From the NCBI RefSeq assembly GCF_017348835.2, contig NZ_CP072315.1: a stretch of DNA of 64,000 nucleotides; one strand, 5' to 3'. Position 1 is the stretch's first letter, and every line of letters starts with the position of its first letter. The translations under genes and the position numbers were made by a program. This DNA is from Escherichia coli. GTDB lineage: Bacteria; Pseudomonadota; Gammaproteobacteria; Enterobacterales; Enterobacteriaceae. This document shows positions 4,225 to 37,502 of this stretch, in pieces. The notes under the pieces are model-generated. The model was given only the letters and a program-made list of their open reading frames with translations. It did no database searches and was not told where the DNA came from.

Positions 4225-5044
4225 GGCACTGTTGCAAATAGTCGGTGGTGATAAACTTATCATCCCCTTTTGCTGATGGAGCTGCACATGAACCCATTCA
4301 AAGGCCGGCATTTTCAGCGTGACATCATTCTGTGGGCCGTACGCTGGTACTGCAAATACGGCATCAGTTACCGTGAGCTGCAGGAGATGCTGGCTGAACG
4401 CGGAGTGAATGTCGATCACTCCACGATTTACCGCTGGGTTCAGCGTTATGCGCCTGAAATGGAAAAACGGCTGCGCTGGTACTGGCGTAACCCTTCCGAT
4501 CTTTGCCCGTGGCACATGGATGAAACCTACGTGAAGGTCAATGGCCGCTGGGCGTATCTGTACCGGGCCGTCGACAGCCGGGGCCGCACTGTCGATTTTT
4601 ATCTCTCCTCCCGTCGTAACAGCAAAGCTGCATACCGGTTTCTGGGTAAAATCCTCAACAACGTGAAGAAGTGGCAGATCCCACGATTCATCAACACGGA
4701 TAAAGCGCCCGCCTATGGTCGCGCGCTTGCTCTGCTCAAACGCGAAGGCCGGTGCCCGTCTGACGTTGAACACCGACAGATTAAGTACCGGAACAACGTG
4801 ATTGAATGCGATCATGGCAAACTGAAACGGATAATCAACGCCACGCTGGGATTTAAATCCATGAAGACGGCTTACGCCACCATCAAAGGTATTGAGGTGA
4901 TGCGTGCACTACGCAAAGGCCAGGCCTCAGCATTTTATTATGGTGATCCCCTGGGCGAAATGCGCCTGGTAAGCAGAGTTTTTGAAATGTAAGGCCTTTG
5001 AATAAGACAAAAGGCTGCCTCATCGCTAACTTTGCAACAGTGCC
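4225..5044 (+). mobile_element. tnp26: IS26 copy 1 (IS6 family), Tnp26 G184N variant
   Basis: 820 bp bounded by GGCACTGTTGCAAA and TTTGCAACAGTGCC; tnp26 about 4288-4992; protein reads KRIINATLGF (Asn at 184). Confidence 0.95.
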
Positions 5045-5637
5045 TTTGCACACATATGGAATCTGTAAATCATTTTGGACAAACCCGAAAAGAAATCCGT
5101 GAGTATGTAGATCTTAATAAGATTACTGACCAGGTTAGTATCCCTGAAGATGGTGAAGTCGTTAATCTTTAATTATACATCCCCACAACTTTAATCAGGC
5201 AGTTACTCATTATGGTTTTACTGGTGACTGCCGGCCCTCTTAGCATTCGAAATTTTTTATGTCACCCGATTTAGTTCCGCGCACTTTTTGAGATTTCCGG
5301 GGTTTCAGCCATCAGCCGGAAATTACAGAGGGCAATGGCTGAAGAAGGTTTTTCCCCGCGATAGCGCAAGTTTCCACAAAAGGGCATCGAATTTTTTGAA
5401 TGCCCTTTTCTTACCCCATCCCCTCATAACTTTATGTTTTTATTAACTTCGCGTTTTCGACGCCAGCGTTGGCCAGCTGCTGCCGGCGACGTGGCCACAC
5501 AACCGATTATTCAAGTTCGCTGAATGAGTTTTTACGGGCTGTATGCAACACAAATGCTACGATAATGCCCCCGGACAATACCGGCTCCCAATAATCCGGG
5601 GTGGGTTTGTTCTGCCGGTTTAGTCCGGGGAGCAAGG

Positions 5638-5925
5638 TCACTTTGAGGGGAGATCTTCAGCAAGTAATTTTCCATGCGCGATAAGCCACCTGCGGCGTTT
5701 TGCCATCCACTGCTGAAATTCAGAGGTGCTCTCAACCTTCAGCACATCCTTCCGCTTCCAGGCCATTATGGGGCCAGCTTTTTGTGGTTGGTCGAGAAAG
5801 TCAGATATGGCTTTATCAGTCCAGTACCGCGCTTTCAATCCACTTTTACTTATCCAGTTATCGTGCCATTCAGCGCTTGCTTTAGCGCGTGAATCGGCGG
5901 CGTTGTAATAAAGCCTTACCGTCAT
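5638..5925 (-). CDS. hypothetical protein
   Basis: 95-aa ORF downstream of, and co-oriented with, the helicase remnant; no recognisable motif. Confidence 0.3.
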   Translation of the reverse strand: MTVRLYYNAADSRAKASAEWHDNWISKSGLKARYWTDKAISDFLDQPQKAGPIMAWKRKDVLKVESTSEFQQWMAKRRRWLIAHGKLLAEDLPSK

Positions 5926-5934
5926 TACTCGCTC

Positions 5935-6395
5935 CTATAATCTCAAGGCTCTGTCATCGTTATTTTTTTCATGGCCTTTATCTTTAGGCCGGGCATTACC
6001 TTTATCCTGCGTCGGCTCGGCTTTGTCTCGGCCTTTTTCGCGGGTATCATGCTGCTGCTCTTTGGCATAGCGTTTGAGTTGTTCCAGCTCAAGCGCGGCG
6101 GTTTTGAACCCTTCCCGGCTGGCCGCTTTATCCAGCTTCTTCTCATCGTCGGTGTAAATGACGGCTTCGTGTTTAGCGCGGGTGACAGCCACGTAATAAA
6201 CATCTTTGGCCGTTGTGAGTGATCGGGTATCCATATTGATAAAAACCTTGTCGCAGGTCAGCCCCTGAGCACTATGAACGGTCGAAGCGTAAGCCAGCCC
6301 TAAGTACATAGGTTTGTTGGCATCAATTTTTACCAGCCGCCCTTTCTCGTTCTCCAGCAGTACCTCACCACTCTGGACGCTTTTTACCTTAAAAC
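5935..6395 (-). pseudogene. 3' fragment of a RecD/TraI-superfamily helicase gene, interrupted by the Tn1721-type inverted repeat
   Basis: Open frame ...FKVKSVQSGEVLLENEKGRLVKIDANKPMYLGLAYASTVHSAQGLTCDKVFINMD... carries the helicase C-terminal motif (YA-TVH-SQG) and starts abruptly at the IR boundary. Confidence 0.5.
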
Positions 6396-6433
6396 GGGGG
6401 AACCGCAGAATTCGGAAAAAATCGTACGCTAAG
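6396..6433 (+). repeat. 38-bp terminal inverted repeat of a Tn1721/Tn21-subgroup Tn3-family transposon
   Basis: GGGGGAACCGCAGAATTCGGAAAAAATCGTACGCTAAG matches the GGGG...ACGCTAAG end pattern; Tn1721 itself carries a chemoreceptor-like gene next to its IR. Confidence 0.7.
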
Positions 6434-34880: not shown

Positions 34881-34882
34881 AC

Positions 34883-35215
34883 GTGCGCCCGCACCGACAC
34901 CCTCACACCTTCGAGCTACTGTTGCCATTAAGGGGTCGTTTCGTGGTGCTGAATTTTGACGATCGGGGTACCGTCACCCATCGGGCGATATTGGGGGAAA
35001 CCTGTACGGTGCTGGAGATGGCCGCAGGAACCTGGCATGCCGTGCTGTCGCTGGATACCGGTGGCATAATTTTTGAAGTAAAACACGGTGGCTATCAACC
35101 CGTGGCTGCCGATGACTATGCGCACTGGGCTCCAGCGGAAGGAGAACCAGGAACCACGGAGCTTATGGCCTGGTATGCGCAAGCGCAGGTGGGCGACAGC
35201 ACTTTTGCCGTCTAA
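34883..35215 (+). CDS. truncated orf477/WbuC-like cupin protein usually found downstream of blaCTX-M group 1 genes
   Basis: 110-aa ORF convergent with blaCTX-M, in the position where the orf477 remnant normally lies. Confidence 0.65.
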   Translation: MRPHRHPHTFELLLPLRGRFVVLNFDDRGTVTHRAILGETCTVLEMAAGTWHAVLSLDTGGIIFEVKHGGYQPVAADDYAHWAPAEGEPGTTELMAWYAQAQVGDSTFAV

Positions 35216-35261
35216 GGCGATAAACAAAAACGGAATGAGTTTCCCCATTCCGTTTCCGCTA

Positions 35262-36137
35262 TTACAAACCGTCGGTGACGATTTTAGCCGCCGACGCTAA
35301 TACATCGCGACGGCTTTCTGCCTTAGGTTGAGGCTGGGTGAAGTAAGTGACCAGAATCAGCGGCGCACGATCTTTTGGCCAGATCACCGCGATATCGTTG
35401 GTGGTGCCATAGCCACCGCTGCCGGTTTTATCCCCCACAACCCAGGAAGCAGGCAGTCCAGCCTGAATGCTCGCTGCACCGGTGGTATTGCCTTTCATCC
35501 ATGTCACCAGCTGCGCCCGTTGGCTGTCGCCCAATGCTTTACCCAGCGTCAGATTCCGCAGAGTTTGCGCCATTGCCCGAGGTGAAGTGGTATCACGCGG
35601 ATCGCCCGGAATGGCGGTGTTTAACGTCGGCTCGGTACGGTCGAGACGGAACGTTTCGTCTCCCAGCTGTCGGGCGAACGCGGTGACGCTAGCCGGGCCG
35701 CCAACGTGAGCAATCAGCTTATTCATCGCCACGTTATCGCTGTACTGTAGCGCGGCCGCGCTAAGCTCAGCCAGTGACATCGTCCCATTGACGTGCTTTT
35801 CCGCAATCGGATTATAGTTAACAAGGTCAGATTTTTTGATCTCAACTCGCTGATTTAACAGATTCGGTTCGCTTTCACTTTTCTTCAGCACCGCGGCCAC
35901 GGCCATCACTTTACTGGTGCTGCACATCGCAAAGCGCTCATCAGCACGATAAAGTATTTGCGAATTATCTGCTGTGTTAATCAATGCCACACCCAGTCTG
36001 CCTCCCGACTGCCGCTCTAATTCGGCAAGTTTTTGCTGTACGTCCGCCGTTTGCGCATACAGCGGCACACTTCCTAACAACAGCGTGACGGTTGCCGTCG
36101 CCATCAGCGTGAACTGGCGCAGTGATTTTTTAACCAT
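35262..36137 (-). CDS. blaCTX-M: class A extended-spectrum beta-lactamase, CTX-M-1 group (CTX-M-55-like: Val77 and Gly240)
   Basis: From ATG at 36137: [46 protein letters not shown]..., 291 aa; reads [11 protein letters not shown] and [10 protein letters not shown]. Allele call from memory. Confidence 0.9.
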
Positions 36138-36682
36138 GGGATTCCTTATTCTGGAAGATACGAAATAACAACAACATGAATAGTCCCTAAATTCCACGTG
36201 TGTTTTTTATTAGCTTCAAAAATCACTATTTCACGAAGAATTTAGACTGCTTCTCACACATTGTAACATTATTTACAACCACCTTTCAATCATTTTTGAT
36301 AAATCATTGATTTCATCTTTGCTGCAATGATACTTAATAAACTCTGCAAGTTATCCACAGAGCAACACTCAATTTTATTGATGATATTCTTATTATACCA
36401 GACATTTTTCATACACTCCCTTGTACGGATAGTTTTCCGACAACTTCATGATTACATATCTTGCGGTTTTGATTATTTTTGCTGCAAGAAATACATACTT
36501 CAAACGAAAGGTCTTTATTTGCTGTCTGTATTCTGAAGAGTCCAAGGAATCAAACTTGAACAACAAAAATAGGTTATATGAAAGCATCATCATTTGAAAC
36601 ACGGCTTCATTCGCCCAAAATGACTTTAGCAAGAGATGACCCACCGCCATGTCGTATTTGGCTTCTTTGATATAGTTTTCAG
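36138..36682 (-). mobile_element. ISEcp1 3' remnant (right inverted repeat, promoter region, end of transposase gene), truncated by IS26
   Basis: Reverse complement directly upstream of the bla start reads ...ACACACGTGGAATTTAGGGACTATTCATGTTGTTGTTATTTCGTATCTTCCAGAATAAGGAATCCC; the supplied ORF 36393-36695 is the C-terminal end of an IS1380-family transposase. Confidence 0.8.
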
Positions 36683-37502
36683 GGCACTGTTGCAAAGTTA
36701 GCGATGAGGCAGCCTTTTGTCTTATTCAAAGGCCTTACATTTCAAAAACTCTGCTTACCAGGCGCATTTCGCCCAGGGGATCACCATAATAAAATGCTGA
36801 GGCCTGGCCTTTGCGTAGTGCACGCATCACCTCAATACCTTTGATGGTGGCGTAAGCCGTCTTCATGGATTTAAATCCCAGCGTGGCGTTGATTATCCGT
36901 TTCAGTTTGCCATGATCGCATTCAATCACGTTGTTCCGGTACTTAATCTGTCGGTGTTCAACGTCAGACGGGCACCGGCCTTCGCGTTTGAGCAGAGCAA
37001 GCGCGCGACCATAGGCGGGCGCTTTATCCGTGTTGATGAATCGTGGGATCTGCCACTTCTTCACGTTGTTGAGGATTTTACCCAGAAACCGGTATGCAGC
37101 TTTGCTGTTACGACGGGAGGAGAGATAAAAATCGACAGTGCGGCCCCGGCTGTCGACGGCCCGGTACAGATACGCCCAGCGGCCATTGACCTTCACGTAG
37201 GTTTCATCCATGTGCCACGGGCAAAGATCGGAAGGGTTACGCCAGTACCAGCGCAGCCGTTTTTCCATTTCAGGCGCATAACGCTGAACCCAGCGGTAAA
37301 TCGTGGAGTGATCGACATTCACTCCGCGTTCAGCCAGCATCTCCTGCAGCTCACGGTAACTGATGCCGTATTTGCAGTACCAGCGTACGGCCCACAGAAT
37401 GATGTCACGCTGAAAATGCCGGCCTTTGAATGGGTTCATGTGCAGCTCCATCAGCAAAAGGGGATGATAAGTTTATCACCACCGACTATTTGCAACAGTG
37501 CC
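36683..37502 (-). mobile_element. tnp26: IS26 copy 6, Tnp26 G184N variant; right-hand boundary of the resistance mosaic
   Basis: 820 bp with both inverted repeats; tnp26 about 36735-37439 on the minus strand; reads KRIINATLGF. Confidence 0.95.

Follow-up and report, generated by a model that had tools for sequence, protein, structure and literature searches.

Clusters of resistance genes in Gram-negative pathogens are put together chiefly by IS26. The variant IS26-v1 differs from it by three nucleotides, two of which cause a G184N substitution in the transposase Tnp26 (PMC9412624), and is equivalent to IS15-delta-1 (IS15DI; PMC6807381, PMC7986276). Tnp26 is a DDE transposase with an N-terminal HTH. 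Its catalytic triad is formed by D78, D138 and E173, with G184 located in a loop beyond the Glu helix (PMC8477213). Enhanced cointegrate formation by the G184N protein is credited to Pong et al. 2019 by PMC8477213 and PMC9019673, in agreement with the statement in the original prediction that this form has been described as more active. Standard IS26 and IS26-v1 have already been described together on one replicon, including on IncHI2 Salmonella plasmids. One of the closest cases is pOYZ4 and the chromosomally integrated MRCP of Salmonella, where an IncHI2 region holds ten mixed IS26 and IS26-v1 copies with no target duplications and for which the authors have already discussed different roles for the two elements (PMC9019673). 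Likewise, the arrays of pseudo-compound transposons and translocatable units described by Harmer & Hall have shared boundaries and no target duplications, and are produced by targeted conservative joining or by recombination between IS copies (PMC6807381, PMC7885326). When more divergent relatives were tested as mixed pairs, identical transposases were required (PMC7885326), and in the literature examined we found no report of a conservative-route reaction between standard and v1 pairs. Recombination between closely related members of the IS26 family is also known to yield chimeric elements, among them IS26-v1-delta-v2 (Acinetobacter PTn6020; PMC9602291) and IS1006/1008, a natural hybrid (PMC7885326).

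Six IS26 copies carrying two alleles

The sequence analysed here (the window) is a 64,000-nucleotide stretch of Escherichia coli contig NZ_CP072315.1, and consists of the right-hand part of an IncHI2 plasmid multiresistance region (Salmonella/E. coli, China type) followed by backbone. The original prediction had placed six 820-bp IS26 copies in it, and all were recovered complete and at exactly those positions. These are listed below as c1 to c6 along with two further insertion sequence features, and alleles are given as the base at IS position 459 followed by those at positions 613-614.

4225-5044, plus strand: c1, IS26-v1 (A-AA), CDS 4288-4992, variant sites 4683 and 4837-4838; IRL meets the class 1 integron 5'-CS/intI1 side and IRR a displaced IncHI2 backbone fragment
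8187-9006, plus strand: c2, standard IS26 (G-GG), CDS 8250-8954; IRL meets a backbone methyl-accepting chemotaxis protein gene and IRR the ISCR2-floR-tet(A)-strAB-sul2-repC module at its beginning
22107-22926, minus strand: c3, standard IS26 (G-GG), CDS 22159-22863; IRR meets the RSF1010 repA/repC end of the floR-sul2 module and IRL a 63-bp IS26 fragment
22922-22984, minus strand: IS26 left-end fragment of 63 bp (IS positions 1-63, T>G at 59), overlapping c3 by 5 bp
23229-24108, plus strand: IS6100, 880 bp, ends GGCTCTGTTGCAAA, belonging to an IS6100-mphR(A)-mrx(A)-mph(A)-IS26 unit
27341-28160, minus strand: c4, standard IS26 (G-GG), CDS 27393-28097, sites 27702 and 27547-27548; mph(A) on one side and the aac(3)-IId segment on the other
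32696-33515, minus strand: c5, IS26-v1 (A-AA), CDS 32748-33452, sites 33057 and 32902-32903; flanked by the aac(3)-IId segment and by the segment with the Tn2 remnant and blaCTX-M-55
36683-37502, minus strand: c6, IS26-v1 (A-AA), CDS 36735-37439, sites 37044 and 36889-36890; IRR truncates ISEcp1 upstream of blaCTX-M-55 and IRL truncates an IncHI2 backbone hypothetical gene, the resistance region ending on the right at this IRL junction

The short fragment that abuts c3 was not listed in the original prediction, and the same fragment-plus-IS26 junction was found again beside blaTEM-1 in sister plasmids.

Alignment of the six copies showed that they differ at IS positions 459, 613 and 614 only and fall into two haplotypes, with c1, c5 and c6 in one and c2, c3 and c4 in the other, exactly the three-and-three split that had been proposed, and with no chimeric haplotype among the six. 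As IS26 copies are exact repeated sequences, chance is not an issue for this split. The tnp26 ATG lies at IS position 64 and opens a reading frame of 234 amino acids (705 bp) that is intact in every copy, which makes positions 613-615 codon 184 and bears out the residue numbering that had been given. Here GG>AA at 613-614 converts GGC to AAC (Gly184Asn), so that the Asn184 copies read KRIINATLGF and the standard copies its Gly counterpart, as had been reported, while the CCG and CCA proline codons distinguished earlier correspond to G>A at position 459, a synonymous change in codon 132 (457-459). Perfect 14-bp terminal inverted repeats, GGCACTGTTGCAAA, are present at both ends of all six copies. 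The Pfam domain DDE_Tnp_IS240 spans residues 75-212 of the protein (E = 7.5e-49), and the motifs HMDETY, NTDKAP and IECDHG place D78, D138 and E173 in the Tnp26 of the window. A sequence search found no solved structure of a Tnp26 relative for placing residue 184. All six copies therefore have the features by which IS26 membership is recognised, 820 bp with 14-bp repeats and a gene for a 234-residue DDE transposase, and judged by their sequences they look functional. Furthermore, c1, c5 and c6 carry 459 G>A together with 613-614 GG>AA and nothing else, and exactly match IS26-v1 of Pong, Harmer, Ataide & Hall (2019; as cited in PMC8477213, PMC9412624 and PMC6807381), with the same length and terminal repeats. 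Two-site G-AA and 459-only A-GG forms are also carried by related plasmids, where both are common; we found no separate names for them in the literature examined. These forms resemble the chimeras of PTn6020 and IS1006/1008, although those involve other variants and other hosts, and the window itself is free of chimeras.

A stepwise-built array lacking target duplications

Copies c1 and c2 lie on the plus strand and c3 to c6 on the minus strand. The latter four are directly oriented with spacings of 5,234, 5,355 and 3,987 bp and bound three consecutive units carrying mph(A), aac(3)-IId and blaCTX-M-55, so that passenger segments lie between directly oriented IS26 copies as in pseudo-compound transposons and translocatable units. 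As in the arrays of Harmer & Hall, c3 to c6 share boundaries with no target duplications, but unlike their model the array in the window is heteroallelic (standard, standard, v1, v1). The window also differs from pOYZ4, which belongs to another IncHI2 sublineage and has another module order.

Comparison of all 12 flanks detected no 8-bp target-site duplication at any of the six copies, and no exact direct or inverted 8-bp match. IS26 in resistance regions usually lacks a target duplication (PMC9019673), and this absence does not count against IS26 membership. With duplications missing at every copy, the present junctions must have been reshaped by later events, and assembly of the region clearly took several steps. 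The best flank pairs were c1L/c3R (7/8 matching) and c2R/c4L (edit distance 2), the latter identical to an imperfect inverted 8-bp signature of the pOYZ4 system (CGTCGCGC / GCCGACG). As 58% of random flank sets yield a pair at edit distance ≤2, and as the direct pair c1L/c3R (P ~0.02) nevertheless joins unrelated sequences, we set both aside as event signatures.

These flanks bear on whether c1, c5 and c6 could all be recent descendants of one IS26-v1 that spread within the plasmid by intramolecular copy-in. The three are identical, each is without a target duplication of its own, c5 and c6 are directly oriented around one short unit, and a hyperactive allele would be expected to generate new copies. 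However, the three are not connected by any 8-bp target signature, whether inverted or shared, and their identity is uninformative, as the 221-nt probe region of the A-AA haplotype is the same in an estimated ~3,300 PLSDB plasmids among the matches listed, and conversion can homogenise copies. A single arrival of IS26-v1 is thus a doubtful explanation, albeit one with some appeal.

Alleles at the same junctions in related plasmids

A comparison with related plasmids had been suggested as a means of ordering the insertions, and it revealed both conservation of alleles at individual junctions and allele swaps at fixed junctions, with no clean order of events. The c2R and c3R junctions, which bound the floR-tet(A)-strAB-sul2 module, are G-GG in six to seven plasmids spanning IncHI2, IncF and IncC, while c5 and c6 are of the Asn184 type in 5/5 relatives examined. 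In pKUSR18, too, c4L is already occupied by standard IS26, and a v1 copy sits on the aac(3)-IId side. Alignment of the displaced fragment (5045-8186) with this plasmid was limited to 6396-8092, the backbones differing there, and yielded no clean event order. In PLSDB (72,556 plasmids), the IS26-mph(A) junction occurs in 2,735 plasmids, of which ~76% match the standard-IS26 probe perfectly and ~3% each have two or three mismatches, these being mismatch counts and not per-plasmid haplotypes; the IS26-v1-ISEcp1 junction (c6R) occurs in at most 171. Such constancy would be expected if each copy retained the allele of whichever element had made its junction, in which case the three-and-three pattern would record events by two lineages and order the insertions.

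Other observations do not fit with this. In p2017028-250 the junction pair at c4, between mph(A) and aac(3)-IId, holds IS26-v1 where the window has the standard element, with identical flanks on both sides. Both c3 and c4 are A-AA in that plasmid, where the marker sites are the sole substitutions over 19.9 kb, and seven of its eight IS26 copies within the parts compared are v1, at junctions that are standard in relatives. The allele at one and the same two-sided junction therefore differs between sister plasmids that show neither rearrangement nor any further substitution there. Two more relatives, p2016062-242 and pEC22-CTX-M-15, depart from the window in their v1 copies at site 459 alone. 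Across plasmids the c1L junction occurs with A-AA, G-AA and G-GG, and pHXY0908 carries a reciprocal G-AA/A-GG pair in inverted orientation. Furthermore, the two marker positions occur in all four possible combinations, each widespread and frequent in PLSDB, where counts estimated from evenly spaced rows among the matches listed gave ~1,100 plasmids for G-AA, and A-GG was found in at least 60. We therefore regard stable retention of the founding allele as unlikely. What had been proposed, that the mosaic was assembled in separate events by different IS26 lineages, holds for the stepwise build and for alleles specific to certain modules, but is not safe as a reading of lineage, with alleles labile at junctions in sister plasmids.

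It is also conceivable that the three SNPs were mis-phased during hybrid assembly or polishing of a multi-copy 820-bp repeat, possibly in the copies of the window too. The plasmid p2016062-242 is nearly identical to the window, with four substitutions and one indel across 37.5 kb, and yet its c1, c5 and c6 differ from the v1 copies of the window at site 459 alone, leaving one other substitution; consensus polishing of repeats could give rise to concerted differences of this kind. Phasing with short reads is also hard here, as sites 459 and 613 are separated by 154 bp and lie 207-459 bp from the IS ends. Against this, all six copies in the window have canonical haplotypes, and the c5 and c6 copies of pEC22-CTX-M-15 likewise differ at site 459 alone, so that G-AA is found at the same junctions in two plasmids from different laboratories. 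G-AA is also abundant in PLSDB, and both recombinant forms occur in some older accessions (G-AA in NC_019063; A-GG in NC_012690, NC_014167 and NC_017645). Public assemblies can mis-phase SNPs in an 820-bp repeat, and while some of the differences between plasmids may be artefacts, they are probably biological as a whole, and we judge assembly error to be a rather improbable source of the pattern.

Probable exchange of marker sites between resident copies

The IS26 allele at a given junction is labile, because sister plasmids differ at the same junctions and recombinant haplotypes are common. The explanation we favour, at a probability of roughly 85%, is that the marker sites have been exchanged between resident copies, so that the allele pattern would be a partial and unstable record of where each module came from. 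Because their ends are identical, the standard and v1 alleles should be able to enter the same reactions, which would comprise copy-in, joining to a resident IS26 by the targeted conservative route, and recombination between copies through RecA. These reactions would string resistance segments between IS26 copies without target duplications, with standard IS26 arriving on widely travelled modules and the Asn184 type present on the CTX-M-55 unit and at the backbone junction. Copies on the same plasmid would then recombine or undergo gene conversion, and their marker sites would be replaced in situ, wholly or in part. The reaction behind any given junction is something we infer; the conservative Tnp26 reaction and RecA recombination leave the same sequence outcome. 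That the G-AA and A-GG chimeras and the in-situ replacements are footprints of the targeted conservative reaction specifically, with the hyperactive Asn184 allele perhaps spreading by conversion as well as by transposition if replacement is biased, is a long shot, although in the model for that reaction a Holliday junction begins at an IS end and, before it is resolved, moves into the element by a varying distance (PMC7885326).

The presence of IS26 and IS26-v1 on one plasmid is common and known biology, and current understanding is unchanged by the present case. A map of the alleles could in principle aid reconstruction of the history of the region and predict its readiness to rearrange. The lesson is one of caution, as the sites that distinguish the alleles move between the copies of one plasmid, and sites swapped in this way would be unreliable tags of lineage unless junctions are compared individually and alleles are validated at the level of reads.

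Two IS26 haplotypes in an IncHI2 resistance region

Repeat search and direct comparison identified six complete 820-bp IS26 elements in the window, exactly where the original prediction placed them. They are called c1 to c6 in window order, L and R denoting the IRL and IRR flanks, and haplotypes are written as the base at IS position 459 followed by those at 613-614.

IS elements of the window
c1, 4225-5044, + strand: IS26-v1, A-AA
c2, 8187-9006, + strand: standard IS26 (G-GG), reference copy for comparison
c3, 22107-22926, - strand: standard IS26, identical to c2
c4, 27341-28160, - strand: standard IS26, identical to c2
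c5, 32696-33515, - strand: IS26-v1, A-AA
c6, 36683-37502, - strand: IS26-v1, A-AA
23229-24108: IS6100

Both 14-bp terminal repeats (GGCACTGTTGCAAA) were present in all six copies, the two alleles have identical ends, and c1, c5 and c6 differed from c2 only at IS positions 459 (G>A) and 613 and 614 (GG>AA), a clean 3+3 split with no chimera on copy-by-copy comparison (0/6). As tnp26 starts at IS position 64 and encodes a 234-aa product, the double change converts Gly184 to Asn and the 459 change alters the last base of the codon for Pro132 (CCG to CCA), and the predicted peptides, proline codons and residue number were right. This fully confirms the 3+3 observation. IS26-v1 is defined by three bases differing from IS26, two of which give G184N (PMC9412624), and by sequence the Asn184 copies are this published variant (RefSeq proteins WP_001067855.1, standard, and WP_001067858.1, G184N).

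Tnp26 has an IS6-type DDE domain (Pfam DDE_Tnp_IS240, residues 75-212), and its catalytic residues D78, D138 and E173 (PMC8477213) were checked on the window sequence, with G184 lying just past the E173-bearing helix (PMC8477213). Sequence search of a PDB copy found no solved structure among Tnp26 relatives. The greater activity claimed for G184N is traced to Pong et al. 2019 and is right according to papers citing that work (e.g. PMC8477213, PMC9019673, PMC9412624), with better terminal-repeat binding suggested as a possible cause of enhanced cointegration (PMC8477213).

The window comprises part of an IncHI2 plasmid multiresistance region, then backbone (umuDC, trhH, traG). Its nearest PLSDB record is Salmonella plasmid p2016062-242 (NZ_CP090540.1); the two are collinear across window 1-37476, differing by four substitutions and one indel. 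The p2016062-242 annotation, shifted into window coordinates, gave the module layout.

Module layout of the window
1: aadA16-dfrA27-arr-3-aac(6')-Ib-cr-intI1, then c1 (v1)
2: displaced backbone fragment, 3.1 kb, then c2 (standard)
3: ISCR2-floR-tet(A)-strAB-sul2-repC, then c3 (standard), then an IS26 fragment
4: IS6100-mphR-mrx-mph(A), then c4 (standard)
5: aac(3)-IId segment, then c5 (v1)
6: Tn2 remnant-blaCTX-M-55-ISEcp1 remnant, then c6 (v1), then backbone

Copies c3 to c6 are in direct orientation with shared boundaries, as is usual when consecutive units form an IS26 array. The backbone fragment (5045-8186) encodes a PAS-domain chemotaxis receptor and includes two small ORFs; its orientation is opposite to that of the backbone resuming at 37503, and p2017028-250 has a version of it that is ~3 kb longer and lacks IS26 at the c1R position. 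ISCR2-floR-lysR is bracketed by a perfect 307-bp direct repeat, with one copy (10637-10943) overlapping the ISCR2 transposase gene start and the other (14921-15227), probably a truncated second ISCR2, between a lysR fragment and tet(A). Adjoining c3 with a 5-bp overlap is a 63-bp IS26 left-end fragment (22922-22984; T>G at IS position 59), and since the identical fragment-plus-IS26 junction recurs beside blaTEM-1 in p2016062-242, p2017028-250 and pSTEC1024_1, it is an old, travelling scar and not a local event.

Flanking sequences of the copies

No target-site duplication was found among the twelve 8-bp flanks, which is also the case in the Salmonella plasmid pOYZ4 (IncHI2) and in its counterpart integrated into the chromosome, where ten mixed IS26 and IS26-v1 copies lack target duplications and different roles for the two variants are discussed (PMC9019673). 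The imperfect inverted signature of that study (CGTCGCGC and GCCGACG; PMC9019673) corresponds to window flanks c2R (GCGCGACG) and c4L (AGCCGACG); this match is statistically weak and is consistent with one of these standard copies having arisen replicatively from the other. The c1 left flank (4217-4224, CGTAAATC) and the c3 IRR flank (22099-22106, GGTAAATC) matched at 7/8 bases in a target-duplication arrangement (chance ~0.02 over 36 pairs), and one standard IS26 in pEC22-CTX-M-15 bears exactly these two flanks. The sides, integron 5'-CS and RSF1010 repA, are unrelated sequences and the resemblance is unexplained.

Alleles at fixed junctions in related plasmids

We typed sites 459 and 613/614 of each IS26, keyed by 20-bp flanks, in twelve regions (L001-L012) from eleven related or module-sharing plasmids, which revealed both module-linked alleles and allele differences at fixed junctions. 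The floR-sul2 module junctions (c2R, c3R) were G-GG in IncHI2, IncF (UK cattle) and IncC (Citrobacter, Klebsiella) plasmids; pKUSR18 (KM396298) had G-GG at c4L, with v1 on the aac(3)-IId side; and c5 and c6 were of the Asn184 type in 5/5 relatives having them. The IS26-mph(A) junction (c4R) occurred in 2,735 PLSDB plasmids, an evenly spaced sample of which matched the standard-allele probe perfectly in ~76%, with one mismatch in ~15% and with two or three in ~3% each. However, sister plasmids differ at fixed junctions. In p2017028-250 (NZ_CP090546.1) the c3 and c4 junction pairs both carry A-AA, and in the 19.9 kb collinear with window 24109-44000 nothing differs but the three c4 marker sites and a 1-bp indel. 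Copies c1, c5 and c6 are G-AA in p2016062-242, site 459 of these three accounting for 3/4 of its substitutions; c5 and c6 are likewise G-AA in pEC22-CTX-M-15 (NZ_CP084901.1), and the c1L junction was seen with A-AA, G-AA and G-GG.

Single-nucleotide differences in a multi-copy 820-bp repeat are easily mis-phased in hybrid assemblies, and such an artefact is most readily suspected for the concerted site-459 difference from p2016062-242. Nevertheless, a second laboratory's plasmid has G-AA at the same junctions, and both recombinant haplotypes are numerous in PLSDB, which argues against the junction differences being pure artefact, although read-level confirmation is still needed. Using 221-nt probes (IS positions 430-650), with identity classes taken from rows sampled at regular intervals among the 5,000 best records, we estimated, rather than exactly tallied, ~3,300 plasmids with A-AA (39/60 rows at 100%; 4,352 records within two mismatches) and ~1,100 with G-AA (13/60 rows), each among those 5,000; A-GG occurred in at least 60 (best 60 rows all at 100%), e.g. 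NC_012690, NC_014167 and NC_017645. All four combinations are present at appreciable frequency and GG>AA involves two bases, which points to recombination between the marker sites rather than recurrent mutation. In pHXY0908 (KM877269), an inverted IS26 pair (23435-24254 and 28968-29787) flanking aac(6')-Ib-cr-blaOXA-1-catB3-arr-3-sul1 has haplotypes G-AA and A-GG, the reciprocal products expected if an inverted standard/v1 pair underwent inversion by a crossover between 459 and 613.

Other differences from relatives lay outside IS26. The window and pEC22-CTX-M-15 differ by one base (A/G) at window 35899 within the beta-lactamase gene, matching its annotation as CTX-M-55 versus CTX-M-15, in an IS26-v1-bounded unit otherwise identical in both. 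At 28386 the window has CCCC, and four sister plasmids (regions L001, L003, L005 and L006) have CCC. The window agrees across 1,340 bp with the older pKUSR18, in which the site falls within an annotated DUF3883 gene running into IS26; therefore the frameshift is common to the sisters and absent from the window, whose plasmid does not simply descend from them. In two bovine E. coli IncHI2 plasmids (regions L006 and L007; NZ_CP074367.1 and NZ_CP098230.1, ~10660-20820), a pair of inverted IS26-v1 copies bounds aac(3)-IId-IS26-mph(A)-mrx-mphR in the orientation opposite to that in the window, therefore IS26-mediated inversion has occurred within this plasmid family.

Assembly of the region

The original prediction read the allele mix as separate assembly events by different IS26 lineages. 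Module-linked alleles at c2R, c3R, c4L, c4R, c5 and c6 favour this, but the sister differences do not, and the alleles record assembly history only loosely because marker sites have been exchanged among copies. Modules may have brought their own IS26 allele, or a resident allele may have captured them; they would have been linked through IS26 copies already in place, either by the targeted conservative route or by RecA-dependent recombination, and the same homology-driven processes could later have swapped internal marker sites. The conservative reaction is proposed to involve a single strand transfer at one IS end, then Holliday-junction migration and resolution (PMC7885326); alone it could place crossovers inside IS26, indistinguishable from RecA recombination by sequence. 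More divergent relatives are reported to have needed identical transposases (PMC7885326), and in the literature examined we found no test of a mixed standard and v1 pair. Coexistence of standard IS26 and IS26-v1 is common and already published, including for this plasmid family, and the two-allele mix in the window represents already-known biology.
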